Virus record (IMG/VR): IMGVR_UViG_3300045988_080466
Length of the DNA stretch: 64,000 bases
Reading direction: 5' to 3' (one strand)
Source of the DNA: a virus
Each line of letters starts with the position of its first letter. The stretch's first letter is position 1. This document shows, one piece after another, positions 3 through 50,003 of this stretch. The notes below the pieces were generated by a model. That model was not told the origin of the DNA. It worked only from the letters and a program-made list of their open reading frames with translations, and ran no database searches. The position numbers and the translations under genes are program-made.

Positions 3-1862
3 TATTATACTGAACTAGCTGACCCAGATAATTATATACCGCAGATTTACCAACAATCTATAATTGATTGGGGTAATGACACACTGGCTAAGTTATCTAA
101 TGACCCAGAGATTGGAGCTGAACTTAAGGAAATTATGAAATCTGAAACTAAGTTCTATAACATTCTTAATAAGATAACTAATCAGAAAATCTTAGATGCA
201 ATTCTTGATTATGCTTATAATAGCAATAGTCCACTTAAAATATTTAAGAAAGAATTAGCTAAGAAGAAAACAAGAGCTGAAATGGAGCTTGAATGGGAAG
301 GAGCTTTAGACTCTGAAGAAGATTGGATGCAAGCTGAAGATTCTGAAGATTTTAGAATTTACAATACTGGAGACAATAAATCTGAACAACTTAGATATAT
401 ATTCTCAAGGTATATAGACGAGTTGAAGAGAAGAAGAGACGAACTTAATACTCTTACCGATGGAGACTTACATAACATGAAAGTTTTATTAGAACTTAAA
501 CAGAAGTCAGATGAGCTTACTAGACTTGGAAGACTTGGAAGTTTAAATCAAGGTATTAAGACTAAGTTAATGGATAAAATTAAATACATCAACCAAATTG
601 AGAGCTTTATTAATAGGAAGTTTACAACCTTTAATAAAACTAACGAACTCAATCCAGAAGATGAAGGATATTTAACTCCTAACTTTAACTTAATAGAGTT
701 TATTCAGAATCCAGAGTATAAACAGCAAATGATTGATGCTTATGAACAAGCTAAAGATACATTCAATATTCTAGACATTATCACATCTGTCCCTCACTTT
801 AACGAAATGTTAAATGCTATGGCAGTAGATGATAAACTTTTAGGATTCTATGCTTCTAAATATACTCTTACTAAGAATCTAGCAATGTCCGCATTACATG
901 CAAAAGCTATTACGCAACTTACTCCTAAGGATATGAGTGAAATAAACAGATTTGTAAGCGATGTAACCATAGTTAAATTCTTAAAGACAGAGCTTGCTAA
1001 TAAAATCTCGTTAGCTCCAGGAAGTAAGATGTACAATAGCTTAGGAGCTGTTGTTCCTGTTGCATCTTCTGGAAAGATTATTGATTTCGCTAATGTATTT
1101 GATAGAGCAACATTTAAGATGTGGTTTGAACAAGAATTTATTCCGAACATGAAAGCAATGAATCCTAAGAATAAATTCATTCAGGCATTAACAAGTACAT
1201 ACTTTAAAAATAATTTCCAAGATTATAATTTCTTATATAAACTTCCTATTGATTTAGGAAACCTTGAACAAGAATCAAATGAGATTGCTTATTCTAACTA
1301 CTTAAAAGCATTTGATGAAATTAAGTACACTAGACCTCTTCCAGATGTTAATATGACTACTGGAGACTTATTCTTCCTATACAACCTACTGGTTAGTAAA
1401 AATGCTTTCGGAGACAATACTCTTACTAAGATATTTGAAAACTCTCTAAGTATGAAAACGAAGAATGATGAAGTTGAGGTTAAGAATAGCCTACTTCTTA
1501 AATTTATGGACTTTGAAGCAAAACAGAATCCTAATCTTAATGAAGGAACTAACGGTCTTGTTGAAGGAGAAGATTATAAACTTGACGATTTATATGTAAG
1601 ACTGATTAAATATAATGAACCAAACGGAACTAGATTTACAAAAGAGTTTGATAATGATGCTGGAAAGATTGTAATCAAAGAAAGTAACTATGGAGAAAAA
1701 AGTACATTAGATTTGTTCACTGATAACAATACAATGTTACTTCCGTTCTTAACTAAAGGATTTACAAGACTTGCAACAGAAACTAAGAACGATTTAATAT
1801 CTAAGTTAGTAAACCTAATTTCAAACAATAAAGCTGAAATAAAATTAACTTGCGATGAGTAA
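3..1862 (+). CDS. large virion-type protein, C-terminal portion (5' end lies outside the window)
   Basis: ORF 135..1862 shares its frame with an open frame running without a stop back to base 3, so Met-135 is probably internal. Its stop overlaps the next start (ATGAGTAA). No catalytic motif recognised. Confidence 0.55.
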   Translation, partial: YYTELADPDNYIPQIYQQSIIDWGNDTLAKLSNDPEIGAELKEIMKSETKFYNILNKITNQKILDAILDYAYNSNSPLKIFKKELAKKKTRAEMELEWEGALDSEEDWMQAEDSEDFRIYNTGDNKSEQLRYIFSRYIDELKRRRDELNTLTDGDLHNMKVLLELKQKSDELTRLGRLGSLNQGIKTKLMDKIKYINQIESFINRKFTTFNKTNELNPEDEGYLTPNFNLIEFIQNPEYKQQMIDAYEQAKDTFNILDIITSVPHFNEMLNAMAVDDKLLGFYASKYTLTKNLAMSALHAKAITQLTPKDMSEINRFVSDVTIVKFLKTELANKISLAPGSKMYNSLGAVVPVASSGKIIDFANVFDRATFKMWFEQEFIPNMKAMNPKNKFIQALTSTYFKNNFQDYNFLYKLPIDLGNLEQESNEIAYSNYLKAFDEIKYTRPLPDVNMTTGDLFFLYNLLVSKNAFGDNTLTKIFENSLSMKTKNDEVEVKNSLLLKFMDFEAKQNPNLNEGTNGLVEGEDYKLDDLYVRLIKYNEPNGTRFTKEFDNDAGKIVIKESNYGEKSTLDLFTDNNTMLLPFLTKGFTRLATETKNDLISKLVNLISNNKAEIKLTCDE

Positions 1863-4800
1863 TTGTATTCAATTTACCATTGGAGATAAGATATATAAGT
1901 TTAGGGATGTAGACCTGCAAAGGTCTGCAACTCTAGACGATATTATCTCTGCAATTGCAGAAGACCCTAACTATGCTAGTCAATTAGAAGATTTAAACAT
2001 TGACTTAAGTAATAGGGGGATAGAATCTATATCTTCAACCAAAGAAATACCAAACGATATAACAGATAGAAATACATATATAGCTGAAAACTTAATGGGA
2101 AATCTTAATCACTATGCATTAAGTCAAATTTATAAAAGAGTTGGAGTTCCTAATTCAGAGTTCTTCACTGCCTTTAAAGACATAATGGATAGAGGTAAAG
2201 GAAATAGATTGAGTTTTCTAGTAACTAATTCCCCTACTCAAACGTTTCTTGGTAATTCGAGAGACTTAGTTGTAATTAATAAAAATGATTTATACAATCA
2301 GCCAAAACTATTGGGAGCATTAAGTTATGTCTATTCTCATTCCCAGTTACTTGACAATCAATCAGCCATATATAAAATAGTAGAAGATGCTTATTCTAAA
2401 ATATTAGAATCTCCTACTGGATTAAGAGAAGAATTATTAAAGATTCCTGATAAGTATGCTGCTTTACGTAGATTGTTGTACTACACACAATCTGATATGT
2501 ATGATACAAATCCTGATATTGCCAGTTTAAAAATGACAATTGGCAATCATTTATTTGCAGAGGTAACTCGTAACATAATGAGAAATAAGGATAGAGAGTT
2601 CTTTAATAATCTTAAACTTAATCCTGTACAATATAAGGCCTTAGAAAACTTAATCGTAAACGAAGAGCTTCCAAACACAATAAATTTCGGAGATTATTCA
2701 GTCTCTGTATCTGAACTTAATAAGTTTAGACTTGATTATATAGAAGCAGAAAGAAACCCTAAAGATGATACTCCAGAAATTGATGATGATAGTCTATTAC
2801 TAAGACTTGCATCTTTAAATCCTAATGGGGCTTTTGATGCTAATATGCTTCCTGCCAATAAAGAACAAAGGCTAATGCTTTTATCTAATCCAATTGCTGC
2901 ATTCGTGTTTGATACAGCTAATTTCAATAAGGTTAGTAAATATGTAAATAAATTTGAACAGGAGGTTGATTCAGCTATTGCTCCAGAAGAAAGGGCTGAA
3001 CTTATTCAAAATAGACTTCAGAATGTTTATACGTCCTTCGGAAAAGGAAGATTAGATGTTAACGGATATATCTTAGACCTTATTCAAGAAGCATCTACGA
3101 ACAAACTTGACTTTAAAAATGCAGAAGATATTAAAGGATTCAATACTATGTTCTATCCTAATACAAGAGTAAATATGGATGAATCACTAACATCTAAGCC
3201 TAGCAGACTCTTGAGATTCAATCACTCTCAATCACTTTCTAAGTTCTCTGAAAATGCTTATAAAGTAGTATTTAATCCAAAGGTTAAATATGTAAATGTG
3301 ATAGGAGGTTCTAACTCTCGTATTGAAATTAATCCAGATTTTAATCTGGAAGTTACAGACGATTTCCAAGAAAAAATCAATGCCCTTGAAGAAGCTGCCA
3401 CTAAGATTAATAATAGCCCAACTAAGAGAAGAACCCTATCAGTTAAATATGATTCTAAGTTTGATTACTCTTTAGAGGAAGGGAGTGCAAATATTAATAA
3501 AGCAATCAATTCATTTAGGAGTGTAATCAAGTACTTGCAAGAAGCAGTGGATAACAATAGAACTTTCTACTATTTAAATACTGATGGTATAGGACAGTTC
3601 TCTCAAGCAATGGTAGTTAATGCTGACCAATTAAGTATTACCCCTGTTGTATTTGACGAACTTAGTCAATGGGTTTACAGTAATGTAAAATCTCCAGATA
3701 AAGCAGAATGGATACGTACATTTACATCTTTAATGAACGCAGCTGAATATACTGACAGTGCTTTATTTAAGTTCTATGATTCCCAGTCATTTAAAGAGAG
3801 AGCATTTAGTTCTAAAAGAGTAGACTCTTCTGGCAAATTATGGGAAAACCTAAATGCAAGACTTACAAAACTAGAAGAAGAAAGAGGACCTCTAGCCCAG
3901 TTCGACATGCTTAAAGAAGGAGTAATATCTATGATTCCTATCTTACCGCAGGGATATAACTATGCTCTTACAAGAAAAGAAGAGGGGGACATCTTTAAGT
4001 TAAAAAATGAAAAGGATAGAGACCAATTTATTAATGTTGAAGTACAAAGAAAAATAGCTCTCACATATAGAAAGGCTGGAGGAAGAAATATATCATCTCC
4101 GAGCGAACTGATGGTGGGAGATGTTATAAGAATAAATCCAAACGACACATATCAAGCGGTTGTTCTTGAAAATAGACCAGAAGGTAAATTCTGTGCTTGG
4201 TTTACATCTAACCAAATTCACTCTGCTGTTCTTACTAATGAGGATTTAAAGAATGTGGTAAGAACCCAATATACAGCAGAGAATAGACAAATTGGGCCAG
4301 ATGTAAAAGCCTTCTATACTAATGTCGGAGTCTTTAGAATGGCTGATGATGCTGTTGACTTTAAATGGGTAAATAATGAATCATCTCTTCCAATTCTACA
4401 TCAAATATTCGCTGATGAAATAACTGATATATCAGAAGCTACTGGATTTACAGAGGACTTTATTAAAAGAAATTATTTAAATACTGTAAAGAGATTTCAA
4501 GTGGCAATGTTTATGGAACTTACTCCAACAACTGAAGAAATTACTTCTACTCCAAATGTAGAGACTCTATCTGATAATCTGTCTACTCCAGAGTTTGTAG
4601 AGGATTTAGTATCATCTTTGGCAAAAAGCGGAGTACAAGTTACTTCATATAGAAAAGAAGAATTAAAAGAAAAGTTCCCTCAACTCGATAATGTTAAGGC
4701 ATTTATCTATGATGGGGAAGTAATAGTAAATTCTGATTTAATGACCGATGATACTTTACTTCATGAGTTATCTCACTTATTCTTAGCTGATTTAAAAAGC

Positions 4801-5238
4801 AGAAATTATGATAAGTATGTTGATTTAGTAAGAGGAATGGAAGGTTCTGATGCTTACGATACTATTAATAATAGTAAAGCATACGATGAACTTACATATA
4901 ATGATAAACTTGAAGAAGCCTTAGTACATGAATTTTCTCAATATTTTACCAGAGTATTGAAGGATTATAGAGGACGTGATTTAAAACTGGATGAAATAGA
5001 GTGGGACGGAATAATTAGTGATGTCTTAAATATTGATGTAAGTGAGTTCTACGATGATAACATATATACTTTAATGAAGAAAACTCTATCTGAAATACAT
5101 AGTAATTATGCAGTTCAGAAAACCTTGTTTAACAAGTCTAATGCTCAGAAAATGGTAAAACTTAGTAACATTAAATCTTCTTTAATGAAGAATCTAAGCT
5201 CTACTGATGGATATGGATTAATTGAAATTTGCGAATAA
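1855..5238 (+). CDS. large (1127 aa) protein with C-terminal zincin-like HExxH metallopeptidase motif
   Basis: Uninterrupted 3.4-kb ORF. TLLHELSHLF (HExxH, nt 4762-4776) is followed about 50 aa later by EEALVHEF, a possible third-ligand Glu. 8-nt overlap with the upstream ORF. Confidence 0.65.
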   Translation: MSNCIQFTIGDKIYKFRDVDLQRSATLDDIISAIAEDPNYASQLEDLNIDLSNRGIESISSTKEIPNDITDRNTYIAENLMGNLNHYALSQIYKRVGVPNSEFFTAFKDIMDRGKGNRLSFLVTNSPTQTFLGNSRDLVVINKNDLYNQPKLLGALSYVYSHSQLLDNQSAIYKIVEDAYSKILESPTGLREELLKIPDKYAALRRLLYYTQSDMYDTNPDIASLKMTIGNHLFAEVTRNIMRNKDREFFNNLKLNPVQYKALENLIVNEELPNTINFGDYSVSVSELNKFRLDYIEAERNPKDDTPEIDDDSLLLRLASLNPNGAFDANMLPANKEQRLMLLSNPIAAFVFDTANFNKVSKYVNKFEQEVDSAIAPEERAELIQNRLQNVYTSFGKGRLDVNGYILDLIQEASTNKLDFKNAEDIKGFNTMFYPNTRVNMDESLTSKPSRLLRFNHSQSLSKFSENAYKVVFNPKVKYVNVIGGSNSRIEINPDFNLEVTDDFQEKINALEEAATKINNSPTKRRTLSVKYDSKFDYSLEEGSANINKAINSFRSVIKYLQEAVDNNRTFYYLNTDGIGQFSQAMVVNADQLSITPVVFDELSQWVYSNVKSPDKAEWIRTFTSLMNAAEYTDSALFKFYDSQSFKERAFSSKRVDSSGKLWENLNARLTKLEEERGPLAQFDMLKEGVISMIPILPQGYNYALTRKEEGDIFKLKNEKDRDQFINVEVQRKIALTYRKAGGRNISSPSELMVGDVIRINPNDTYQAVVLENRPEGKFCAWFTSNQIHSAVLTNEDLKNVVRTQYTAENRQIGPDVKAFYTNVGVFRMADDAVDFKWVNNESSLPILHQIFADEITDISEATGFTEDFIKRNYLNTVKRFQVAMFMELTPTTEEITSTPNVETLSDNLSTPEFVEDLVSSLAKSGVQVTSYRKEELKEKFPQLDNVKAFIYDGEVIVNSDLMTDDTLLHELSHLFLADLKSRNYDKYVDLVRGMEGSDAYDTINNSKAYDELTYNDKLEEALVHEFSQYFTRVLKDYRGRDLKLDEIEWDGIISDVLNIDVSEFYDDNIYTLMKKTLSEIHSNYAVQKTLFNKSNAQKMVKLSNIKSSLMKNLSSTDGYGLIEICE

Positions 5239-5239
5239 A

Positions 5240-8200
5240 ATGGCGTGTAAATATACTTTAAAAATAAATAGTACTGGAAAGGTTCTTACATTTAACTCCG
5301 AAAAAGAACTTGACAACTACCTACTATCTAACTACACTGAATTTGAAGGTATGGTCGACCATACCTTTAGATTTAGTAAAGACTACATAACTATGTTAGA
5401 TACAGAACAGGTAAAATCTCAAGATAAACTAGATAAAGATAGGAAACTTGCCTATGAAAAAGCTAAAGCAAGAAATGCTAAAAATGACGATACAATAGTA
5501 GTCAGAGGGCAAGGTGAAATGACTGATGTCATTGAAAATGAGGAAACATATTCTGACGGATTTATATCAGTTCTGAAATTTTTATCACGTCAAAGAGGCA
5601 CCAATGCGCCTCTTATTAACGCTTTCAGTAGGGAAGGGTACAAGAGGAACACCCGTATAGATAGGTCTCAAGGAAAGCCTGAGGATGTCTCTCCAGAAGA
5701 GTGGCTAAAACAAATAGATTCTTCAATTGACCAAGACTTTGAATATTGGGATTATTTACAAGAAATCGGACGAGGATTCCACTTAGTAATGGATACAGTT
5801 ATAAATTCCAACTTTGACATATCTGCTGATATGGTTGACTCTGTTATTAGCAAGAAGTTTGAGAGAGACTTTTTAGGGGGAAAGAATTTAAGTACTCTAA
5901 ATGGTGTATCGACTGGAGCATTAATGGACTTTATAAAAGGAATTACGGCTCTAAAGAAAAACATAATCCTTAACAGTGGAAGAGGAAGGAAATTCAAAAA
6001 ATTCTACACAGAATATGTAGTAGACCACGATGGTGGACCTGATGCAAAACTTAGAGGTAAGATTGACTTACTTGCAGTATTTGAGGATAACGAAGGCAAT
6101 CAAAGCGTTGAAATATATGACTTGAAACTTGCTACTAAACCACAAGATAGATGGGATGCTGATAAGAAAAATACTATTCAATATCAGCTTGGTTTCTACA
6201 AAAGAATGTTACAAGCCAAAGGAATTGCAGCAAGAAATATATCTACTAAAATTATCCCAGTTCTCATTGAAGGGGATAAAATACTCCACAAGATTGATAA
6301 AGTATCAGTCGGAGAACCAGAAGTTTATCTTCCTAATATTGGACAAAAAGCTAATATTGACGAAATAATTAAAATACCTATTGGTATAGAAAATTTATCT
6401 AATCCATTAGAAAATACAGTGTCAGAAAGAATGAGTAAGTTCTTCCCAATGAGTAAAATCAATCCTACTGATATTGTAGACTTTGATATGTTATTTGCTT
6501 CTCAAGTACATATTGATAAAAATACTGGAGAGTACTGGTTTAGAGATGTTACTAAATCAACTAATGAAAAGGGAGAAATAAGAAGAGCTACTAAAGAAGA
6601 AGCGGAAGCTGCATTTGAGGACTATCTAGTAAGAAAACTAGAGCATGATAACGATGTAACTCTCGCTATTACTAACAATCTTAAATATAATCTTGATAAG
6701 GTAAATGGCTTTGGAGGAAAGAACTTTAATCCTACAAGGACAGGTTTACAGATTGTTCCAGCTAATACATACGAACCTAAGCTTGGATTGTTTGAAGCAA
6801 ACTTATCCAAATACAAAAATGAGCCAGGATGGAACATAATTAGTAATGATGCTCTTACTAATATGAATGTTATTCTTCTTATTAATGAGACAAGAAAAGA
6901 AATGGATTTAATTTCTATTGCTTCTCATGACCTTAATAGTACTATTAATCTAGGTAAGGGTAATAATATTTTTGGAAGGTTTAAATCTGATAGAGAAGTG
7001 GAACTCGATAAACAAGTAATTAAAGCCACAGTCGGCAATGTGGAACTTATGAAACTGCTTTCTATTGCCAATGCTTTTCAAGAAACCGATTTGGGTTCTT
7101 ATACTATCGGGGAAATGAAGGTAGTTAATATTGGCAAGAGTGAATATCTTTCTTCCTATTTAAATCAAGAAAAAATAAATCATGCCTTCAATACTTTATC
7201 TGAATTATCTGGACAAAGTAAAGGAAACACATTGAAGTTTACTGATGAGTTTGATATAGCATGGAGAACCTTTAATAATATCATGAACTATGGAACCTAT
7301 GAAAATAGAGATAGACTTGATAAAATTGCTAAAACGTTATCAATAGATGGAGATATTACATCATTTGATAAACAAGCGAAGATGGACATCCTTACAAGAA
7401 TGTTCAAGGAACTTCAAGCTAGATATTTCTCTACTAATGCATCTGCTGATATTTCTAATCCTATTGCATATTTATTTTTACAAGTATCTAATGCTTTGGC
7501 TAAATATGGAAACACTACCATTGATATCTATAATGAAGAACTTTGGGCAAAGAACTTTGGTAATCTGGCAGAGCAGTGGAAAAGGGGAGAATTATTTAAT
7601 GGTACTTACTTAAATACTATTGATACAATCCCAATTGTAAAATCAGTTGCTCATAGATTGGCAGAAACCAACAGAAATATCACTAATTTATATGGTAATT
7701 ATAAGAACAAAGATAGGGCTATAACCAATAAGTTCTATCAGGAATCTGGACAAGGTTTCGTAGGGAAGACCATTATCAATGATTCAACAATTCGTTTTAA
7801 AAGATTACTTGACCAATCTGATTCTGGAAAGAGAAAGTTTATGGTTAAGAATCCGTATGATATGTCTACTGATTTAAATCCAGCAGAAAGAAACTATTTA
7901 AAATATTGGCTAGAGGATTTAAATAATAGAAGATATCCAGGACAGGATAGAGCAGAAGTTGGAGAAAGATACTTTGAAATACCTTTATTAAGAGGTTCCT
8001 CATTTTCTAAAATAACTAATGGTAAGAATCCTCTAGTTACTTATAAAGAAGATGGTTCTTTAGAAATGGTAAATCCAAGAATGACTACGACAGCTCAAGA
8101 AGAATATTTATCTACAGATGCTCTAAAGAATCTTGTAGAGATGTATAACGTATTCGATATTTCTAATTCAGTAGGAGGAAGAGAAAGACTTCTTTCCGAT

Positions 8201-9865
8201 ACTAATGGTAAACCTGAACAAACATACGAAACTAACCTTGAACACATTAAGGATATGTATGTGTTCTCCGATATTAGAAAGAAGGAAATGGATACAGTTC
8301 TTCCTGCTATTAATGCAGCAATTATTTCTCTTCAATTTACACAGAGACTTTCTAACAAGGATGCCCAAGCAACTATCGACTTCTTGAATGATTATATTAA
8401 GTCAGCAGTATTCGATGAATCTCTTATTGATAAAGAAAGTAGGGGAACGTTTAGAACTTTAGGAATGTTGAAGTCAGTATCTACTAAATTTATTCTTGGT
8501 TTTAACTACTTATCAGGAGCTAAAGAAACTATCACCGGATTCTTCAATCTTTATGAAAGAGCAGTAGCTAATAGCTTACTTGATAAAGATAAGATAGGAC
8601 TAAAGGATATGACTTCCGCTTATACTACTGTTTGGGTCGATTCTGTAAGACAGATAAGTACGATTACTATCCTAGAACATTTAAATTGGCAATATAGAAT
8701 GGCTAACGTGGATATGAACGCATTAGTCGATAGAATGAACTATGAAAAGACTGATGGATTCAGATTTAATGACAGAATGTTCTGGGCTAATAGAGCTCCC
8801 GACTTCTTATCAAGAATGACAATCCTCATTGGCTATATGAAGAAACATGGCTGCTATGATGCACATGAATATAAGAACGGAGAGGTAACTTACAATTGGA
8901 AAAAAGATAAGAGATTTAGTCTTCTTGCGAATCCAAATGCTGATACTAATTCATCTGAATGGCAATATCAAAGGTCTTTATATAATGCAATGATGGAAAC
9001 TTTCTTTGAAGAAAATTATAAACTTCCAAATGCTGACGGAACTTCGAGATTCTTATCAAGAGAAAAGGATTCAAGGGGAGTTTATAAAGAAGCTCTTCCT
9101 CAAGCATATACTACTCTTGAAGCTAATATGATAAAGCAAGAATCTGACAGCATATTCGGATATATGGACCACGATACTAAGTCTTTATATCTAAAGAAAG
9201 GAATGTTTATATTCCTTCACCAATTCCAGACTTTCTTGTCAGCAAAGAAAAATCAATACTTCCTAAAAAGAGGCACTTACGACCAAGGTCATTGGGTTCA
9301 GGTAACTGATGATGCAGGAAATAAGCTTTATTGGGATACTGTTCAAGACAACGAAGGTAACACCATTAGAGTTAAAACTACAGAAAATACTGGAGACCCA
9401 ATTGTGGATTGGCAAGGTAAAATTATGGAAGGAATTGCATGGTCACTAAGAGACTTATTTAACTTTACTAAGCCAGAGAGAATGAAAGATGCTTGGAGAG
9501 ACCCTGTAAAAAGAAGAAATCTCCTATTAGCTTTAGAAGATGGGGCTATTATAGGAATTATTTATCTAATGCTTGCTTTATTATTTGGAGATAAAGATGC
9601 AAAAGCTATGTCAAACACTGAACAAGCTATCGCAAGAATAGCAAGAAATGTAGGCGGAGAATTTAATATGTTTGCAATCTTTAATGGGGCTGTAGACTTT
9701 AAGATGCCTATGTATCAATTCTATAGTGGATTGTTCGAAGATGGAGTTAAAGTAGCATCCGGTGATATGCATGTATTAAGATTCTTTACTGATAATACTG
9801 GAGCATTCAGACCTCTTAAACCAACTGTTATAGATAACTTTAAAGCACCTAACGCTAACGAGTAA
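5240..9865 (+). CDS. giant (about 1540 aa) virion-type protein with RecB/Cas4-like PD-(D/E)XK motif set and C-terminal hydrophobic segment
   Basis: 4.6-kb ORF. The ORF track starts at TTG 5222, but ATG 5240 follows the upstream TAA directly. Motifs GKIDLL ... EIYDLK ... QYQLGFY (D / DxK / QxxxY). LLLALEDGAIIGIIYLMLALLFG lies near the C-terminus. Confidence 0.65.
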   Translation: MACKYTLKINSTGKVLTFNSEKELDNYLLSNYTEFEGMVDHTFRFSKDYITMLDTEQVKSQDKLDKDRKLAYEKAKARNAKNDDTIVVRGQGEMTDVIENEETYSDGFISVLKFLSRQRGTNAPLINAFSREGYKRNTRIDRSQGKPEDVSPEEWLKQIDSSIDQDFEYWDYLQEIGRGFHLVMDTVINSNFDISADMVDSVISKKFERDFLGGKNLSTLNGVSTGALMDFIKGITALKKNIILNSGRGRKFKKFYTEYVVDHDGGPDAKLRGKIDLLAVFEDNEGNQSVEIYDLKLATKPQDRWDADKKNTIQYQLGFYKRMLQAKGIAARNISTKIIPVLIEGDKILHKIDKVSVGEPEVYLPNIGQKANIDEIIKIPIGIENLSNPLENTVSERMSKFFPMSKINPTDIVDFDMLFASQVHIDKNTGEYWFRDVTKSTNEKGEIRRATKEEAEAAFEDYLVRKLEHDNDVTLAITNNLKYNLDKVNGFGGKNFNPTRTGLQIVPANTYEPKLGLFEANLSKYKNEPGWNIISNDALTNMNVILLINETRKEMDLISIASHDLNSTINLGKGNNIFGRFKSDREVELDKQVIKATVGNVELMKLLSIANAFQETDLGSYTIGEMKVVNIGKSEYLSSYLNQEKINHAFNTLSELSGQSKGNTLKFTDEFDIAWRTFNNIMNYGTYENRDRLDKIAKTLSIDGDITSFDKQAKMDILTRMFKELQARYFSTNASADISNPIAYLFLQVSNALAKYGNTTIDIYNEELWAKNFGNLAEQWKRGELFNGTYLNTIDTIPIVKSVAHRLAETNRNITNLYGNYKNKDRAITNKFYQESGQGFVGKTIINDSTIRFKRLLDQSDSGKRKFMVKNPYDMSTDLNPAERNYLKYWLEDLNNRRYPGQDRAEVGERYFEIPLLRGSSFSKITNGKNPLVTYKEDGSLEMVNPRMTTTAQEEYLSTDALKNLVEMYNVFDISNSVGGRERLLSDTNGKPEQTYETNLEHIKDMYVFSDIRKKEMDTVLPAINAAIISLQFTQRLSNKDAQATIDFLNDYIKSAVFDESLIDKESRGTFRTLGMLKSVSTKFILGFNYLSGAKETITGFFNLYERAVANSLLDKDKIGLKDMTSAYTTVWVDSVRQISTITILEHLNWQYRMANVDMNALVDRMNYEKTDGFRFNDRMFWANRAPDFLSRMTILIGYMKKHGCYDAHEYKNGEVTYNWKKDKRFSLLANPNADTNSSEWQYQRSLYNAMMETFFEENYKLPNADGTSRFLSREKDSRGVYKEALPQAYTTLEANMIKQESDSIFGYMDHDTKSLYLKKGMFIFLHQFQTFLSAKKNQYFLKRGTYDQGHWVQVTDDAGNKLYWDTVQDNEGNTIRVKTTENTGDPIVDWQGKIMEGIAWSLRDLFNFTKPERMKDAWRDPVKRRNLLLALEDGAIIGIIYLMLALLFGDKDAKAMSNTEQAIARIARNVGGEFNMFAIFNGAVDFKMPMYQFYSGLFEDGVKVASGDMHVLRFFTDNTGAFRPLKPTVIDNFKAPNANE

Positions 9866-36867: not shown

Positions 36868-36898
36868 TAAAAAAGAGCGGTTCTACACGAACCACTCT
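36868..36898 (-). terminator. rho-independent terminator after nrdD-nrdG
   Basis: Minus-strand RNA AGAGUGGUUC-GUGUA-GAACCGCUCU: a 10-bp stem with one G-U pair, followed by UUUUUU. The stem includes the nrdG stop codon. Confidence 0.65.
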
Positions 36899-37380
36899 CT
36901 CCAAAATAAATTAGTAATATCTTCTAATACATAAAGACCTGCTTCTTCATATGTTTTATTAACTTTATACATTTTCTGATTGGTGTTAGGATTATCAAGT
37001 GGGCCTAATTCCTCAATATACGGTCCTAACTTAATAAAATCATACTCCCCCAGTCTTCTTTCTAAACCAAGCGGTAATTGTTCTCTTCCAGAATACCATG
37101 CTGTTTTGAGAGAAGGATAAAGAGCTCTTATATGCTTGCATAGGTAATAAATGTCCATAGGATTGGAATCTCCTCCCATAAAAGCCACACAGGTTATTCC
37201 TTCATTCTTGTTAATCAGACAATCTAGTTCGCTGTGAGTCAATTCCTTACCAATATCCTCTGCCAAGTAAGAACTATGACAGCCCTTACAATGACATGGA
37301 CAATTAGAAATGTTTATACAGAGAGTTACCTCAAGAGGAATCTCTCGTAGTGTTACTGCTGTGTCTGTATATTTAAGCAT
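36883..37380 (-). CDS. nrdG: anaerobic ribonucleotide reductase activating protein (radical SAM)
   Basis: NCPCHCKGCHS cluster motif. 165 aa, with an 8-nt overlap with nrdD. Confidence 0.85.
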   Translation of the reverse strand: MLKYTDTAVTLREIPLEVTLCINISNCPCHCKGCHSSYLAEDIGKELTHSELDCLINKNEGITCVAFMGGDSNPMDIYYLCKHIRALYPSLKTAWYSGREQLPLGLERRLGEYDFIKLGPYIEELGPLDNPNTNQKMYKVNKTYEEAGLYVLEDITNLFWREWFV

Positions 37381-39583
37381 TTGTATATCCTAATTTAGAA
37401 TTGTCTACTGTGTAAGTAAGAGAATTGTACACTCTATGTGTTTGCTCTTCTTGTCTGCCTGCTGACCAATTCTTTATCTTAGTAAGATAACCAATGATTC
37501 TGTCATACATATCTATGTGAGTGCTTCCACACTTAGGACAAGTAGTAACAGGAACCTTAGTAATGAACCCACAATCTTGACATTCAGAGTTTGGAACATT
37601 AAATGTTAGATAACTACATCCAACAGTGGCAGCATAGTTGAGTAACAGACTTGCCTGATTCTTAGTAGGATGTTCGGATAGATTAATATGAGCTGCACTA
37701 CCTCCGTCTAACCAATCACCAACATATTCACTTCCATGAAGTTTGATTTTCTCCAAGATTGAACTGTTAGATTCTGGTAAAAATACATAAGAAGTATATA
37801 AGTTTCTTTCTTTAGGAACCCAATACCCATCAGCTTTATCCCAGTTGTAATTCTTCACAGCTAAAGATTCAGCAGGAACCAGTTCAGTGTTGAACATAGT
37901 TTTCTTAGTATTATGGAGTTGATTTTGCTCTTTGATAGTTCCGAAAATAAGATTACAGAACTCTTTGTACTCATCATTGTCACTACATTCAATTCCCAAG
38001 AACATTGCAGCTTCATTCAATCCATTTAAGCCAATGGTTAAATACTGATTATTCAGGTTGATAAATCCAGCTTCATATACAGGCAACAAATGTGCATTAT
38101 ATAAGTCCCAAAGTAGCTCATTGTAAGCTGTATGATACTTATAGACTCTGTCTAAAATATTGGTTAGATACTCTTTTACCTCTGGATAGCAATGCTTGCT
38201 GAGTTGTGTTCCCGGAATAGGACATTCATCTTTAGTTTCTCTTATAAAATTCTGAATAATTCTATTCAGGTTAAGAGTAATTACAGATTTAGAACCAGTT
38301 TGTTCTCCAACCAATCCATTAGTAAATGTAAATTCATTAGATTGGAGTTTATTCTTTAATCGGCAGCAACTTGATAAAGAGTCCACACTATCACTTATAT
38401 AAGTAAAGAATGAATGTCCTTCTGCATACTCTTCTGAAACAAATTGTTCCCATTCCTTATCTTGAAACTCTCCGTCCTTATAAAGAAGAGATACTGTTTC
38501 TACTGGGAATGTGAGCATACAACGAAGTCTCTCTTGATTAAACCACTTCATAAATTTCTTTTGAAGCCAGTTAAGAGAATTCCATTTTGGAGTATCTCCA
38601 TCAGGGAATACAAAATGTCCATACATTCCTTCAAAGTAAGGTTTATCAAAATAACTTACATTCCAGAAAGCTGATTGAAAACCTCTTGCTGCTGCCGGCT
38701 GATTCACAGAATATACGATTTGTTGGAAGTACTGTTCTATTTGCTTACCGATAGTACCTTCGTCAATCTTATTTCCATTTTCGTCTTCGTGCCACCTACG
38801 CTTAGCGTTATCACCATCAGCATATTTAAAATAATAATCACCCCATTTCTTACGAGCAAAGTGGTCAAACATTACTAAGAAACTTGCAGTTGCAACAGCT
38901 CCCGCAAATTGGGAAGATACAGCAAATATCATATTTACAAACATTCCACAAAATGAATCAAGGTTCTTTGGAGATGCAGATAAACCACCAATTCCCTTAA
39001 TTCCGCCTTGCAGGAATGGATAACAGGATAAAGCTACACAATATGGGAATCCAAATGTAGAATTTTCATCATGTTTATAGATGATATGGCTCTTTAAATC
39101 TCTTTCATACTGTTTGTAGTCGAAATCAGGATATAGTACTTGAAGTTTCTCCTTTACTCTATACCTATTAAGGTCTATATTATTACTTTTATATAGCTCA
39201 TTGTTAAGTACCGCAATATTCTTATTGGCAACATTTGAGTTATCATCAACTTCTGAGCCTTCCGCTGCATTAGAAGCCTTCATAAATTCTTTTATAAATT
39301 CTTCTCTTTCTCTCACATTCTCACGAACACGAGCTCTGTTTTCTCTATATAAGATATAAGCTTTAGCAACATCAGGGAAATCAAAGTCCATAAGAATCTC
39401 CTCTATCTGGTCTTGTATGTCCTCAATCGTTATTTCATCCCATACTTCAATAGAATCTAAAATATCCTCGACAGTATCTTCTTGTGGTGTGTATCCGCAA
39501 GCACTAAATGCTTTCAGGACTGCAATTTTGATTTTTGAGGCATTGAAAGCCTCGCTTGTTCCGTCTCTTTTTATTACGTTCAT
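37373..39583 (-). CDS. nrdD: anaerobic (class III) ribonucleoside-triphosphate reductase
   Basis: N-terminal ATP-cone (VIKRDGTSEAFNASKI). C-terminal Cys4 site (CQDCGF...CPKCGS) and glycyl-radical motif RIIGYLT. Confidence 0.9.
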   Translation of the reverse strand: MNVIKRDGTSEAFNASKIKIAVLKAFSACGYTPQEDTVEDILDSIEVWDEITIEDIQDQIEEILMDFDFPDVAKAYILYRENRARVRENVREREEFIKEFMKASNAAEGSEVDDNSNVANKNIAVLNNELYKSNNIDLNRYRVKEKLQVLYPDFDYKQYERDLKSHIIYKHDENSTFGFPYCVALSCYPFLQGGIKGIGGLSASPKNLDSFCGMFVNMIFAVSSQFAGAVATASFLVMFDHFARKKWGDYYFKYADGDNAKRRWHEDENGNKIDEGTIGKQIEQYFQQIVYSVNQPAAARGFQSAFWNVSYFDKPYFEGMYGHFVFPDGDTPKWNSLNWLQKKFMKWFNQERLRCMLTFPVETVSLLYKDGEFQDKEWEQFVSEEYAEGHSFFTYISDSVDSLSSCCRLKNKLQSNEFTFTNGLVGEQTGSKSVITLNLNRIIQNFIRETKDECPIPGTQLSKHCYPEVKEYLTNILDRVYKYHTAYNELLWDLYNAHLLPVYEAGFINLNNQYLTIGLNGLNEAAMFLGIECSDNDEYKEFCNLIFGTIKEQNQLHNTKKTMFNTELVPAESLAVKNYNWDKADGYWVPKERNLYTSYVFLPESNSSILEKIKLHGSEYVGDWLDGGSAAHINLSEHPTKNQASLLLNYAATVGCSYLTFNVPNSECQDCGFITKVPVTTCPKCGSTHIDMYDRIIGYLTKIKNWSAGRQEEQTHRVYNSLTYTVDNSKLGYTNA

Positions 39584-45693: not shown

Positions 45694-45906
45694 TTATAAA
45701 GCGTCTATATCAATGACATCACCTACTTGGGCATTTGCGGCTTCGATGATGTCAACAAACTCACTCCAATCCCCAGGATAGTCTAAATCCCAGAGATTTA
45801 CATAAGTTTCAATGATTTTATCCTTAGCTTCTTGAAGGCTTCTGGCTGTAATTTTCTCAACCCAGACGCTATCACTGGTGCTAAAAGGAACTACGTATGT
45901 GTTCAT
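45694..45906 (-). CDS. hypothetical protein
   Basis: Co-directional 70-aa ORF. Confidence 0.45.
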   Translation of the reverse strand: MNTYVVPFSTSDSVWVEKITARSLQEAKDKIIETYVNLWDLDYPGDWSEFVDIIEAANAQVGDVIDIDAL

Positions 45907-46709
45907 TCACAAACTTCGTCAAAGTTTTCAACAATGTCAATCATCTCATTATCGAGAACATCCCAGACTTGGTCGAATATGGTTTGTGGCATCTTTTCGT
46001 AATAGGCATAAGCAATACTGCCGGCCATAGCTGCAATAGTATCACTATCTCCACCCATAGAAATAGCTAGTTTTAAACAATCCTCGTAGTCTTTAGACTC
46101 AAGAAATGCAAGTAAAGCAATAGGAACACTGCCTTGACAAGTAGAATCGAAATGATATTCTGGACGAATCTCATCCAAAGTCTTAGATGCATACTCTGGA
46201 TAATATTTATTGAGAATGTCTCTCACAGAATTTTTAGTCCGAAGTTTCTGTTTCATTACGTATATTGCCAATGCAATAGCTTGAGCACCTTTCACTCCCT
46301 CTGGGTCATTATGAGAACACAGAGCAGAGTTCTTAGCGAGTTCAAGACACTCCTCAGCACTTTTAGCTGCATAGCCACAAGGACTTACACGCATTGCCGA
46401 ACCATTACCATAGCTTCCATAAGGAACAGGATTATCAATCCATTTACGGAACATTCCACCATATCCTCTGTTGGGATATTTCTTACACATTTCTTGGATG
46501 CACTCTCCAAATTGCTCTGGAGTAGGATTTCCGTACTTTAGAATAGCATTTGCTACTCCAATAGTACATACAGTATCGTCTGTAAAACCATTACCTGTTC
46601 TTACTAAACGAACCACTTCATACAGTTTAGTTCTTCCGAACTTTGCTTCATAGGAGGAACCGCAGACATCACCTGCAATTGCTCCAAATAGTACATAGTC
46701 TATTATCAT
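45903..46709 (-). CDS. ADP-ribosylglycohydrolase (ARH/DraG family)
   Basis: GAIAGDVCGS, FTDDTV, GNGSAMRVSP, GGDSDTIAAMAGSIA: the family's metal-binding motifs in order. Confidence 0.8.
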   Translation of the reverse strand: MIIDYVLFGAIAGDVCGSSYEAKFGRTKLYEVVRLVRTGNGFTDDTVCTIGVANAILKYGNPTPEQFGECIQEMCKKYPNRGYGGMFRKWIDNPVPYGSYGNGSAMRVSPCGYAAKSAEECLELAKNSALCSHNDPEGVKGAQAIALAIYVMKQKLRTKNSVRDILNKYYPEYASKTLDEIRPEYHFDSTCQGSVPIALLAFLESKDYEDCLKLAISMGGDSDTIAAMAGSIAYAYYEKMPQTIFDQVWDVLDNEMIDIVENFDEVCE

Positions 46710-47011
46710 TGGTAGCTGACTGAGTTTTTAATAGTTATTTCTTCGTTGTAAAAGTTGAATCCTTCAGGGGTTCCAAAATCTGTTAATGTAAAAGAGCTAT
46801 CCGTTGCTCCTTCAAAAATTTCATCGTCCATGTCCTTGTTAAACACTTTAACAATTATTCCTTTAAAGCTCTTGAGTGATGGTTCTACTGCAAGAACAAC
46901 ATAATCATAACCATGACTTGCATATCTAAGAAGGCATGGATACGGGAGTGTTTCAGATGTCATAGGAGATGTAATTTTTACACCCTCTATTTTTGGAGTC
47001 GATTTAATCAT
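46706..47011 (-). CDS. hypothetical protein
   Basis: 101-aa ORF with 4-nt overlaps to both the radical SAM gene and the ARH gene. Confidence 0.5.
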   Translation of the reverse strand: MIKSTPKIEGVKITSPMTSETLPYPCLLRYASHGYDYVVLAVEPSLKSFKGIIVKVFNKDMDDEIFEGATDSSFTLTDFGTPEGFNFYNEEITIKNSVSYQ

Positions 47012-47928
47012 AATTCAATTATTTTAATTGGATTTAAGTTAAATGAACTTGGGGTTATTTGTACTTTATCTTTTGTAAGAATCACGTTCTTACTTAAAGA
47101 TTCGGGTGGATAAAGATAAGTAGGAATCTTAGAAGTTTCCAGATACTTAGAGAAATGGGCTCCGAAAGCAATGTTTTCCATACCTTCTGTGAGTACTTTC
47201 TCTTCAAGATACTCGAATACTCCCTCATCAATTCCACTATCACTACGTCCAGAAGGCATCAACGGCAACAGAACATGATATTTTACATCACTTCCATAGC
47301 GTTTCCATTCATTAACAAAATAGTCAACGGATTCCTTGTTGGAAATAATATGGTGAATATTTACATTTGTGTCACCCATCGTAATGAGATTGCAAATAGC
47401 CATATCAGCATATTTACGCAACTCTCTATTTCCTAAACTTACAGCAACTCCGCCTACGAAGTTACGAGTATATTCAAGCAACTCTCGATTAGTAGCTTTA
47501 GACAATGTAATGCCATTAGTAGTATAATTAGGAACTACTCCTGTATTATACACTGTCTCTAAGAACTTACAGAAGTCTGGATGAATAGTAGGCTCACCAG
47601 TAGAACCGATAGCAATTTGAAATGGCTTATCGGTAATAGTAACGTGATTTGCCTTTTCTTCTTTATAAAGACTCATCCACTTTACCCATGTTTCGCATAT
47701 ATCAGGATAGTTAATTCCTTTATGTGAAGCACTTACGTAACAGAATGGACATTCTGCATTACAAAGAGTGTTAATACCCACATCGTAGAACTCTGCTTTA
47801 TCAGCCGGAAGTTCTTTTGCAACTCCTTCACCAAGTCTAATAGTCTTTAAATTTGGAGACCAAATTGCATTATAATTGTAGTCTGGAAACACTCTTCTTT
47901 TTAAACCCCAATGGTTAAAATCTTTCAT
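47008..47928 (-). CDS. radical SAM enzyme (function unknown)
   Basis: NTLCNAECPFCY (CxxxCxxC) and the GSTGEPT SAM-binding-type motif. No C-terminal Cys cluster. Confidence 0.75.
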   Translation of the reverse strand: MKDFNHWGLKRRVFPDYNYNAIWSPNLKTIRLGEGVAKELPADKAEFYDVGINTLCNAECPFCYVSASHKGINYPDICETWVKWMSLYKEEKANHVTITDKPFQIAIGSTGEPTIHPDFCKFLETVYNTGVVPNYTTNGITLSKATNRELLEYTRNFVGGVAVSLGNRELRKYADMAICNLITMGDTNVNIHHIISNKESVDYFVNEWKRYGSDVKYHVLLPLMPSGRSDSGIDEGVFEYLEEKVLTEGMENIAFGAHFSKYLETSKIPTYLYPPESLSKNVILTKDKVQITPSSFNLNPIKIIEL

Positions 47929-47945: not shown

Positions 47946-48470
47946 TTAGTTTCTTTCGTTTTCTGGAAGTTCTTTCCATTCAGAATAAGATACAACTTCT
48001 ATCACTCTTTTGGTTTCTGGGTCAATGCGACAATAACTGTCACAAGTTACCACTTCAAGGTTATTAAGTAACCAATTGATTGTGGCTCTTCTGCTGTGGT
48101 CTATATCAACCCACACGAATTTTTCCAACTCTTCAAGAGATTCTTTAAATTGTAAAGAGAAGACTTCCTTGGTGAATAAATCCCGCTTGTTTTCAGGTAT
48201 ATATTCATTCTTATCTTCGTTGTAATAATCATCAAAAGTCTTTATCTCCAATTCCCCGCCCATACCGGATGAAGAATCGTACTTGGCTCTTTCTTCGTCA
48301 GATAGTTTCTCCCACTCATCCCAATCGCCATCAAAATAGTTCTTGTTTGCAACTTGCTCAATTAGATTTACTAAATCATTGACTGGAGTAGTTGCCTTAA
48401 CTACGAATACCTCTGAACTAGAGTTCGTAATAATGTCTGAAACAGACTGTAATTTAATTCCTAATCGCAT
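47946..48470 (-). CDS. ITNSSSE-motif family protein, paralogue 4 (174 aa)
   Basis: N-terminus MRLGIKLQSVSDIITNSSSEVFVV is shared with three upstream ORFs. Acidic, divergent remainder. Confidence 0.6.
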   Translation of the reverse strand: MRLGIKLQSVSDIITNSSSEVFVVKATTPVNDLVNLIEQVANKNYFDGDWDEWEKLSDEERAKYDSSSGMGGELEIKTFDDYYNEDKNEYIPENKRDLFTKEVFSLQFKESLEELEKFVWVDIDHSRRATINWLLNNLEVVTCDSYCRIDPETKRVIEVVSYSEWKELPENERN

Positions 48471-48802
48471 CTTTCTACTGTATAATTTTCTTCTCCGAAC
48501 TTATCTTTGAGAATAGCCTTAACTCCTACTTCAAAGAATGTATCACATTCTATTCCATAAGGAAGACTTAATTCACAGACAAATCCTTCAAATCCTTCTT
48601 CATTCTCATGATAATATTCAGTCTCGTCACTAATAACAGGACTTAGTTCCCAGTCATGAGAAGGGAAAAGGTCCTTTAGCGCGTTATATATTTCATCATG
48701 CAGGACTTTGTCCTTAGTATCTACTCTAAGAAATGTTTCAGAACTTGAATTTGTAATGAGGTCGGAAATTGATTGAATTTTAAGTGTAATTTTTAATTTC
48801 AT
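48461..48802 (-). CDS. ITNSSSE-motif family protein, paralogue 3 (113 aa)
   Basis: N-terminus MKLKITLKIQSISDLITNSSSETFL. Confidence 0.6.
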   Translation of the reverse strand: MKLKITLKIQSISDLITNSSSETFLRVDTKDKVLHDEIYNALKDLFPSHDWELSPVISDETEYYHENEEGFEGFVCELSLPYGIECDTFFEVGVKAILKDKFGEENYTVERCD

Positions 48803-48969
48803 ACTCTAATCTTTTTGAATTTACCACATTTTTTACATAAAAAAGTGATTTCTACCCAAGTGGGACATTTATCAGTCCCGCTCCAGTATAATTCACTCTG
48901 TTTTACTTGTTCCCATTCGTGGCAGCATAGGAATTTCTTTTTAAACGCTTCTACTAAGTCTTTAAACAT
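48799..48969 (-). CDS. small Cys-rich (zinc-ribbon-like) protein
   Basis: FLCCHEW ... CKKCGKF. Start moved to ATG 48969, just after the upstream TGA. Confidence 0.45.
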   Translation of the reverse strand: MFKDLVEAFKKKFLCCHEWEQVKQSELYWSGTDKCPTWVEITFLCKKCGKFKKIRV

Positions 48970-48970
48970 A

Positions 48971-49510
48971 TCAATAACGATAGTCAGCACTGTATAGAGT
49001 ATCTAAAGAGTTCAGAGCTTTGGCAGCCATTTCAGCGTCCTCATTGTCTAATCCGTCCTTAACTCTAATGTTCAATTCTTCAAGAGCTGGGAAAGAGTCC
49101 CAGGCACCGTCATTTTGTTCTATACAGTATTCTTCGTATGTCTGTGCTCCATTTTCAATTGCAACTCTTTTTACTTCATCAAAAATATATTCAAGTGCTT
49201 TAGACTTACTTTCACTCCAATCTCCTGCATCCCAGCCGTCAGAGTAAATTTTTTCAAGAGATTTAGCATAATCATTATCCCCGTCCTTGATATAATTTTT
49301 GATGTAGTCATAGTATGCGTCCTCCCATCTATCATCGAACTTAGTGTCGAATACAAATAGGTCAGAGAACATAAGAGTACTTCCTACCGATGCAAGTAAA
49401 GAATCCACAATATTCCTGATAATACATTCTGCATTGTCATTCAATACTGTAAATGTTTCAGTGGAACTGTTAGTAATTAAATCTGTAATAGATTGAATTT
49501 TGATTTTCAT
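48971..49510 (-). CDS. ITNSSSE-motif family protein, paralogue 2 (179 aa)
   Basis: N-terminus MKIKIQSITDLITNSSTETFTV. Acidic, Trp/Tyr-rich remainder. Confidence 0.6.
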   Translation of the reverse strand: MKIKIQSITDLITNSSTETFTVLNDNAECIIRNIVDSLLASVGSTLMFSDLFVFDTKFDDRWEDAYYDYIKNYIKDGDNDYAKSLEKIYSDGWDAGDWSESKSKALEYIFDEVKRVAIENGAQTYEEYCIEQNDGAWDSFPALEELNIRVKDGLDNEDAEMAAKALNSLDTLYSADYRY

Positions 49511-49511
49511 T

Positions 49512-49844
49512 TTATCCTAAATGATAACGGTTAATATTTGAATAATCTAGACTTTCTATAAACTCCATTACCCATCCCGGTATGCTGTTATCTGTTACTG
49601 ACTCGATGACTAAGTCTCCTCTTTTTATTTTAATGTGTCTGTAAAAATCATAGGTCATATCATTTGATGCTACCCAAGTTTTGTATAATTCGCTCGGAAC
49701 TAATCCGGCAGCGGTTACTACTTTATCAATCAATTCTTCTATTTCCTGATTTTTACTTTTTTGATTGTGAACTACAAACAACTCACTCGAGCTATTTGTT
49801 ATCACATCTGATATTGACTGCGTCCTCAAGATTACTATCATCAT
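49512..49844 (-). CDS. ITNSSSE-motif family protein, paralogue 1 (110 aa)
   Basis: N-terminus MMIVILRTQSISDVITNSSSELFVV. Confidence 0.6.
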   Translation of the reverse strand: MMIVILRTQSISDVITNSSSELFVVHNQKSKNQEIEELIDKVVTAAGLVPSELYKTWVASNDMTYDFYRHIKIKRGDLVIESVTDNSIPGWVMEFIESLDYSNINRYHLG

Positions 49845-49968
49845 CTAAAAGTGTTTGTAAGTTATTAATTTCTCTTTGGTGATAGTCTATTTCGTCCTCT
49901 AAATCCATAATTATAAGATTATGTTCAAGGATTTGGCTCTCTATCACTTCTCTCTGTTCATTTGTCAT
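49792..49968 (-). CDS. small coiled-coil-like protein (58 aa, below ORF-track cutoff)
   Basis: Hand-translated MTNEQREVIESQILEHNLIIMDLEDEIDYHQREINNLQTLLDDDSNLEDAVNIRCDNK. Overlaps paralogue 1 by 53 nt. Confidence 0.3.
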   Translation of the reverse strand: MTNEQREVIESQILEHNLIIMDLEDEIDYHQREINNLQTLLDDDSNLEDAVNIRCDNK

Positions 49969-49971
49969 AAC

Positions 49972-50003
49972 AATAAAAAAGGCGACTATTGTTTAGTCGC
50001 CTT
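49972..50003 (-). terminator. rho-independent terminator
   Basis: Perfect 10-bp inverted repeat AAGGCGACTA / TAGTCGCCTT (49979-50003) with a 5-nt loop, followed on the minus strand by TTTTTATT. The stem contains the last codons and stop of the upstream gene. Confidence 0.7.

Follow-up and report, generated by a model that had tools for sequence, protein, structure and literature searches.

The DNA analyzed here is a stretch of 64,000 nucleotides (nt) from the virus record IMGVR_UViG_3300045988_080466 of IMG/VR, referred to as the window throughout. The element under study is a tandem array of four small genes on its minus strand, which is followed directly by the gene of a radical S-adenosylmethionine (SAM) enzyme. 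The four open reading frames (ORFs) encode proteins of 110, 179, 113 and 174 amino acids (aa), which have the peptide QS[IV][ST]D[LIV]ITNSS[ST]ExF in common within residues 6-24. Paralogue 1 (110 aa; 49512..49844; isoelectric point [pI] 5.04) presents this motif as QSISDVITNSSSELF at residues 9-23, paralogue 2 (179 aa; 48971..49510; pI 4.12) as QSITDLITNSSTETF at residues 6-20, paralogue 3 (113 aa; 48461..48802; pI 4.44) as QSISDLITNSSSETF at residues 10-24 and paralogue 4 (174 aa; 47946..48470; pI 4.44), a member of an SGMGG/DxDH subfamily, as QSVSDIITNSSSEVF at residues 8-22. The radical SAM enzyme (306 aa; 47008..47928, minus strand) lies immediately downstream of paralogue 4 and exhibits its CX3CX2C signature, CNAECPFC, at residues 56-63. 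The module-bearing proteins belong to a large, unannotated and almost exclusively phage-borne family, and they are genetically locked to this one minimal radical SAM enzyme, with which they are inherited and lost as a unit.

The residues Q, S, D, I, T, N, S, S, E and F are invariant in the alignment of the four paralogues, and a six-frame scan of the whole window retrieved the motif at these four places only. The 45-nt stretches that encode it (49776..49820, 49451..49495, 48731..48775 and 48405..48449 for paralogues 1 to 4; all on the minus strand) are identical at 24-31 of the 45 positions between copies. Each pair of copies shares 10-13 conserved motif residues, of which 7-9 are written with different codons, thus indicating old duplicates under purifying selection and not a recent DNA repeat. 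An earlier note on this DNA, made from the sequence alone, had reached the same conclusion, and the ORFs, motif peptides and DNA strings that it listed proved exact on re-examination. Its description of the proteins as acidic and rich in aromatic residues also holds: all four are acidic (pI 4.1-5.0), and their content of F, W and Y is moderate with 9-13%.

A profile of the four paralogues retrieved at least 2,716 proteins among 8,000 candidates scored, and when 1.84 billion cluster representatives were searched exhaustively with a profile, at least 1,767 clusters (50% identity) matched at E<=1e-3. The near-unchanging start of the four proteins is accordingly explained by their membership in one large unnamed family. 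Its members have a length of 58-265 aa (150 listed), and no Pfam domain is present in 120 listed homologues. The four paralogues have no match to a Pfam, PHROG, NCBIfam or PADLOC model or to a PDB sequence, 37 family members are without a PHROG, and tblastn detected no counterpart in 50,697 GenBank phage records. In prokaryote genomes (one per species, 185,579 species) only six loci were found, all of them on contigs of metagenome-assembled genomes (MAGs). The exact proteins of the window occur in public data on as many as 436 contigs, with lengths of up to ~280 kilobases (kb), and recur in metagenomic phages of roughly 180 kb. Paralogue 1 is deposited without any change as DAU45655.1 of a MAG TPA (third-party annotation) Caudoviricetes record, and further window proteins as DAU45650.1 and DAU45651.1; all of them are just labelled “hypothetical protein”. 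The motif strings occur in no relevant paper of the full-text literature searched, and searches for phage radical SAM systems likewise brought up no relevant match. The family and its cassette are hence new in the sense that they are absent from the libraries and the literature searched. The earlier note could not place the motif in any family and had proposed a profile search with the motif and the full proteins as a check; this search disclosed the large family and no characterized domain family, and the sequence and fold searches ended without a significant match.

The alignment of 462 unique members provides the consensus h-K-I-Q-S-x-S-D-x-I-T-N-S-S-[ST]-E-x-[FY], a module of about 22 residues, in which T, N, S and S were preset by the pattern used to collect these sequences. 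Positions that the pattern left free are near-constant as well, namely, S (97%), D (95%) and Q (80%). In the family members examined the motif is located within about the first 20 residues, and the module is predicted to form a strand, a Ser-rich loop and a second strand. The acidity of the window proteins is a family trait, with a median pI of 4.6 and values below 5.5 in 95% of the 249 members examined.

Beyond the module, no sequence relationship is detectable among the four C-terminal parts, which is in accordance with the divergence past the motif reported in the earlier note. With the motif removed, hhalign probabilities remained below 5% in all six pairwise comparisons of the window types. 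Each type has clear relatives in other tail groups according to profile comparisons (SGMGG type 99.8%, 179-aa type 98.9%, 110-aa type 90-92%). The tail type of paralogue 2 is the most widespread one in the loci sampled. A universal “core” type of paralogue was considered and rejected, since every tail type is missing from some loci at the BLAST level. The ten longest family members lack a fused known domain.

The 174-aa type is distinguished by the additional conserved motifs SGMGG, DxD[HW] and TIxW..N.L, all of which are missing from the other three copies of the window. The additional conserved positions of paralogue 4 are G69, G71, G72, D124, T130, W133 and N137, and other conserved residues of this subfamily are located directly before or after predicted strands. 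AlphaFold2 modeled the protein with a mean predicted local distance difference test score (pLDDT) of 88 and a predicted template modeling score (pTM) of 0.81. The pLDDT exceeds 90 outside the module and drops below 50 over residues 10-26, which represent the invariant module. This local drop may reflect a lack of covariation, or it may mark a part of the protein that needs a partner or ligand to take its shape. A Foldseek comparison of the model with the PDB resulted in a best E of about 1 and contained no flavodoxin among its matches, and the BFVD returned nothing annotated. DNA-mimic proteins, the sole structural hint at a biological role, appeared among the top Foldseek rows at a statistically insignificant level. 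Resemblances to several known motifs and reactions were dropped because neither fold nor sequence supported them: the flavodoxin phosphate loop, the HAD DxDxT, the metallophosphoesterase “SDxH” and the PIN “DTN” motifs, the first strand of RNase H/DEDD nucleases, pyruvoyl- or intein-like N|S self-cleavage, and isopeptide or ester cross-links.

The genetic linkage between the family and the enzyme was investigated in 76 viral loci that had been gathered with the family profile. Nearly all of them contain two to five tandem copies on the same strand, and several more copies carry variant motifs that were missed by the first pattern. Of the 76 loci, 74 also encode a homologue of the 306-aa enzyme with an identity of 45-100%, usually right after an array of one to six copies, and a 75th locus (L050) harbors a divergent CX3CX2C protein one gene downstream. 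The reverse test started from the enzyme profile and found the family in 80 of 80 loci; 79 of these have one to six same-strand copies within 4.5 kb upstream of the enzyme gene, and the 80th has three copies just upstream. Other neighbors are less constant, namely, RusA (49/76), a primase-like protein (49/76), an ADP-ribosylglycohydrolase (16/76) and a small Cys-rich protein of 63 aa (12/76). The pairing is maintained where the flanking genes differ entirely, and in two loci with an inverted gene order (L034, L067) family and enzyme are still adjacent. The small ORFs that follow the enzyme gene in different lineages are mutually unrelated in profile comparisons, which argues against a third core component of the cassette. 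Of the earlier proposal that the motif is a leader-like recognition element for the downstream radical SAM enzyme, the link itself thus gains strong genetic support from two-way co-occurrence, adjacency across contexts and co-deletion; the term “leader-like” does not suit proteins that, as modeled, are folded and 100-250 aa long instead of short precursors, and an enzyme without SPASM or twitch cluster and without a PqqD or RRE (recognition element of ribosomally synthesized and post-translationally modified peptides [RiPPs]) match.

Natural deletions provide an independent view of the same unit. Two loci with 99% identity to the window (L001, L003) encode a fifth paralogue (127 aa), which is located behind the 63-aa Cys protein and ahead of the 113-aa copy (L001:7262-7757, corresponding to window site 48799-48802). 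The window exhibits a gene-precise deletion of this paralogue, the ends of which coincide with two start codons (shared ATGAAAT). Its absence here and its presence in 99%-identical phages document that single copies are dispensable. Another example is the comparison of L183 and L187, which have identical flanks. L183 harbors four copies and the enzyme, and L187 has retained nothing but a truncated first copy. The deletion of ~2.5 kb (about 9986-12835 in L183) covers the greater part of the first copy, all of the other three and the enzyme gene, which shows that array and enzyme were lost together.

Family members may also be located far from the enzyme gene. The 218-kb contig IMGVR_UViG_3300026549_000032 contains eight copies at three sites (3+3+2; L205, L197 [=L054] and L176), and the enzyme gene was found beside one of these arrays only. 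L205 represents the canonical cassette, in which a 372-aa enzyme homologue comes after three copies. L054 comprises three copies and has no enzyme gene within reach, wider flanks included; it was rejected as a counter-example, because the same contig holds the canonical cassette elsewhere. The distribution of eight copies over three sites with a single enzyme gene found is in line with an enzyme acting in trans on clients that are encoded at dispersed sites. Taken together, the enzyme is present in 186 of 205 loci, and those without it comprise short contigs, the orphan arrays of the 218-kb contig, L187 with its deletion, a single unrelated locus and a distant lineage with a “[KR]S..D” variant of the motif. 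In this lineage, arrays of three to five copies are located directly after a DHH/DHHA1 phosphoesterase gene in L164:1627-5243, L172:3787-6708 and L174:2294-5191, and L173 likewise lies next to such a gene. The L170 array stands alone, and L054:13176-14105, which belongs to the same lineage, has a DHH gene ~3 kb downstream of its array. NAD-salvage genes are present just upstream in L172-L174 (NMNAT-like and isochorismatase; NAPRTase in L172/L173). The DHH/DHHA1 gene is regarded as a less likely alternative partner, given that the association is confined to this one distant lineage and that the unrelated DHH-bearing phage L168 is devoid of family members.

The 306-aa protein carries CX3CX2C near the N-terminus of a partial TIM barrel and thus qualifies as a member of the radical SAM superfamily. 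Its match to Pfam PF04055 (Radical_SAM; E 5e-6) scores 27.1 bits, just below the cut-off of 29.5, and many of its homologues carry PF04055 in precomputed annotation. Curated models for the tungsten-cofactor oxidoreductase maturase, viperin, Tes and pVip all matched far under their cut-offs, and no solved structure is a sequence relative of the enzyme. All three cysteines of the CX3CX2C motif and no other cysteine are conserved in 51 aligned homologues, which argues against a SPASM or twitch cluster, and the protein stops about 55 residues past the radical SAM core. The AlphaFold2 model (pLDDT 82, pTM 0.84) places three short conserved strands ahead of the barrel, an N-terminal extension without the helices of an RRE. 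Foldseek related the model with a probability of 1.00 to many radical SAM structures, the best of which is SuiB (E 4e-8, template modeling score 0.57-0.59), followed by DesII, GDGT-MAS, MoaA, viperin, BlsE, PqqE, NifB, Mmp10 and EpeE. SuiB, PqqE, EpeE and Mmp10 act on peptides or proteins, and the modeled fold is a generic radical SAM fold with a slight lean to such enzymes.

Three further observations concern the enzyme gene. An invariant strand-loop near its C-terminus, “[IV]T[PR]SSF” (residues 291-296; window 47043-47060), resembles the “ITNSSSExF” of the paralogues; the likeness could reflect a pairing surface, a pseudo-substrate or chance. A homologue with 49% identity (L169:7660-8772, 370 aa) has CX4CX2C (CSTGKCSFC) in place of CX3CX2C. 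In seven loci (L024, L033, L059, L060, L075, L077 and L079) another ORF interrupts the radical SAM gene and divides it in two; in most of them this insert encodes a GIY-YIG-type homing endonuclease of 199-413 aa (cluster c59), and L060 has a different insert of 373 aa. The split genes suggest that this conserved gene is the target of an intron or of a free-standing endonuclease.

The remaining genes of the locus are all located on the minus strand. A terminator-like hairpin with a 10-bp stem and a T-run (49979..50003) marks the end of the RusA-like gene and precedes a 58-aa ORF and paralogue 1; it is likely to represent a transcript boundary. Past the hairpin, neighboring genes overlap or stand at most 17 nt apart, with intergenic distances of 1, -20, -4, -10, 17, -4, -4 and -4 nt from paralogue 1 onward. 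The combination of overlapping or nearly abutting genes with an upstream terminator-like hairpin gives the run the appearance of a single transcription unit. At its head lies the 58-aa ORF (49792..49968), which encodes an acidic protein conserved in 21 of the 76 loci and is not part of the core cassette; its 53-nt overlap with the start of paralogue 1 covers the motif-coding region in another frame. The small CCH...CxxC protein that the earlier note had placed between copies 2 and 3 is present there as the 63-aa Cys-rich ORF (48799..48990), which matches PHROG 28857 (function unknown; 8e-7). It stands outside the motif family and is no part of the core cassette either. Downstream of the enzyme, a 101-aa ORF (46706..47011) shares 4 nt with the 3' end of the radical SAM gene. 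It is present in 21 of the 76 loci, and no relationship was detected between it and the small ORFs located past the enzyme gene in other lineages; it is lineage-specific and does not belong to the core. The ADP-ribosylglycohydrolase (45903-46709; Pfam 9e-34), two genes past the radical SAM gene, overlaps the 101-aa ORF by 4 nt, and the run ends with a 70-aa ORF.

The surroundings are dominated by genes for replication and nucleotide metabolism: a family-A DNA polymerase, Dda-like and DnaB-like helicases, DNA and RNA ligases, NrdD, the RusA-like resolvase and a primase-like protein. A 165-aa single-cluster Fe-S protein and the adjacent NrdD-like anaerobic ribonucleotide reductase (36883-37380 and 37373-39583, minus strand) form a pair, and the former is probably the NrdG activase. 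The phage consequently encodes two different radical SAM-type enzymes, and the presence of a separate NrdD with its own NrdG-like activase rules out the 306-aa enzyme as activase of the ribonucleotide reductase. Three very large ORFs of 575, 1127 and 1547 aa at 135-9865 are located on the plus strand, opposite to the rest of the window; the 575- and 1127-aa ORFs have no PHROG match at 1e-5.

The reading that we favor, with a probability of roughly 0.45, is that of one enzyme with many clients, in which the module would serve as a common handle for recognition, and probably modification, by one minimal radical SAM enzyme. The enzyme would recognize the shared module on every client, and radical chemistry, starting with hydrogen abstraction, would take place within or next to the T-N-S-S-S-E loop. 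Oxidation, epimerization, cross-linking, cleavage and the attachment of a prosthetic group are possible reactions at this Ser/Asn loop. Modification would turn the clients into their active form, and the variable acidic domains would then perform different tasks early in infection, either in host takeover or in counter-defense. The same 15 residues on otherwise unrelated proteins, the free choice of copy number and tail type, and the presence of one enzyme for distant arrays are best explained by recognition or modification. A near-invariant module with scrambled synonymous sites on differing tails is what would be expected if many proteins had to fit one recognizer. We infer an accessory role in host takeover or counter-defense because the cassette lies among replication genes and is dispensable, its copies turn over and the proteins are acidic. 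In its most far-reaching form, the proposal describes a hitherto unrecognized protein maturation system of large gut phages, whose minimal radical SAM enzyme would install a new modification or a radical-derived reactive group on an invariant T-N-S-S-S-E hairpin, a portable tag of many unrelated acidic effector domains, and thereby arm a whole set of proteins for host takeover or counter-defense at once; we put forward this version only tentatively.

Several observations weigh against the one-enzyme, many-clients reading. The most serious caveat is provided by the “[KR]S..D” arrays (L164, L170, L172-L174), which have no radical SAM gene within reach on their metagenomic contigs. The enzyme lacks the SPASM or twitch cysteines that are usual in peptide-modifying radical SAM enzymes, scans of Pfam and NCBIfam detected no PqqD or RRE domain, and its fold matches include DesII, MoaA, viperin and BlsE, which act on small molecules. 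On the side of the clients, the first strand of the module is modeled inside the 174-aa fold (pLDDT ~82), and the SGMGG and DxD[HW] motifs of this subfamily are typical of a ligand or active site; both would fit a self-contained function of the module.

Some of these points would be accommodated if the paralogues were interchangeable accessory or specificity subunits of the enzyme. The module would then dock on the enzyme, for example as an added strand on its N- or C-terminal sheet, and each tail would bring a different substrate, be it a nucleotide, a nucleic acid or a host protein, or would regulate the enzyme. The linkage data apply to subunits as well as to clients, the small-molecule enzymes among the fold matches are in line with such a scheme, and the SGMGG/DxD[HW] signature of one subfamily resembles a ligand-binding site. 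The likeness between “[IV]T[PR]SSF” of the enzyme and “ITNSSSExF” of the paralogues could even mean like-with-like strand pairing or competition for one site. However, one to eight copies per genome without a universal tail type are more typical of clients than of stoichiometric subunits, copies have been gained and lost between 99%-identical phages, and some arrays are located far from the enzyme gene. We know of no radical SAM enzyme with such a set of alternative subunits and regard this explanation, the strongest of the rivals, as rather unlikely.

A further alternative, close to one raised in the earlier note, dispenses with the interaction: the module would represent the core strand and the loop, with an active or ligand site, of a fast-evolving family of small alpha/beta proteins that act alone, perhaps by binding or hydrolyzing nucleotides or signaling molecules, and the enzyme would merely belong to the same pathway. 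The extreme N-terminus, in which a strand leads into a Ser/Thr-rich loop, and the conserved residues that flank the predicted strands in the SGMGG subfamily agree with this idea. The module is moreover invariant in arrays without an adjacent radical SAM gene, some of which lie beside DHH/DHHA1 and NAD-salvage genes. We nevertheless consider it improbable, since the four paralogues of the window share nothing detectable past the module, three of them are devoid of SGMGG and DxD[HW], so that a catalytic site would have to be built from the module alone, and no known enzyme or binding fold corresponds to the 174-aa model. The earlier suggestion of a capsid-targeting or processing signal, equivalent to the propeptide of T4 internal proteins and marking proteins that are packaged and injected, has the same formal architecture of a short shared N-terminus on unrelated small proteins in a variable array, and the invariant S-S-E could act as an S/A/G-x-E site, the cleavage site type of giant-phage prohead proteases, but it is highly improbable in view of the strong acidity (pI 4.1-5.0 here and below 5.5 in 95% of the 249 members examined), about ten near-invariant positions across very distant phages, a conserved partner that is a radical SAM gene in a region of replication genes and not among head genes, and a first strand that is modeled as part of the fold.

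The analysis transforms four “hypothetical proteins” into a defined two-part system and uncovers a family that is abundant, yet without a name, a domain model or a structure. If the enzyme modifies the tag, the cassette would represent a new radical SAM reaction on folded proteins, and its portable recognition tag of 20 residues might be of use in protein engineering. It would also offer a handle on many early phage proteins, whose diversity and turnover suggest anti-host roles. Should the paralogues turn out to be subunits or independent enzymes, they would still represent a new fold with an unusually rigid signature.

The T4 internal proteins are the formal equivalent of the array, because a short N-terminal capsid-targeting sequence is shared by otherwise unrelated small proteins that are encoded in a variable gene array (PMC9026906). 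The T4 signal comprises 10 residues and has been probed with substitutions at several positions (PMC9026906). The phage motif considerably exceeds it in length and is conserved far more strictly, its bearers are acidic whereas the T4 proteins are basic, and it is linked to a radical SAM gene instead of head genes. Prosthetic-group carriers such as ACP and CitD/MdcC are small acidic proteins as well, in which a conserved Ser-containing loop near the N-terminus receives a covalent group. They have no sequence or fold match in the present family, whose partner is a radical SAM enzyme and which is not accompanied by a linked transferase gene. Flavodoxin-like reductants of radical SAM enzymes with their T/SxTGxT phosphate loop are no closer, as no flavodoxin is among the PDB matches to the 174-aa model.

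The action of small radical SAM enzymes on a short rigid loop of a folded protein is known from PflA, NrdG, the anaerobic sulfatase maturase, RimO and Mmp10, and such enzymes can serve several clients. The module differs from the sites of glycyl-radical activases and the sulfatase maturase: it is free of glycine, it is located at the N-terminus and not in a C-terminal RVxG[FWY] loop, and it does not contain a C/SxPxR-type motif; SGMGG is present in one subfamily only. A pair of this kind is moreover present in the window itself, namely, NrdD with a separate NrdG-like protein.

The closest parallel is found in the leader-guided radical SAM maturases, namely, SuiB/SuiA, PqqE/PqqA and RiPP clusters with several precursors, in which one enzyme is encoded beside tandem genes that share an N-terminal recognition sequence and differ thereafter. 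Nearly all loci have one to six copies right before the enzyme gene, which corresponds to this arrangement of several tag-sharing genes beside a maturase, and SuiB is the best structural match of the phage enzyme. In contrast to the short leader and core peptides of RiPP systems, the putative phage clients are acidic proteins of 100-250 aa with a folded structure, predicted as compact for the 174-aa member, and their variable parts are whole domains. The phage enzyme differs from the RiPP maturases in its lack of SPASM or twitch cysteines and of a detectable PqqD-type domain, and the system is almost confined to phages. By analogy, the cassette thus resembles in kind the radical SAM maturases that are paired with tagged clients. 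It is set apart from the known maturase-client systems by a tag on folded proteins with unrelated domains, a minimal enzyme, clients that are dispersed over the genome and a distribution that is close to phage-only.

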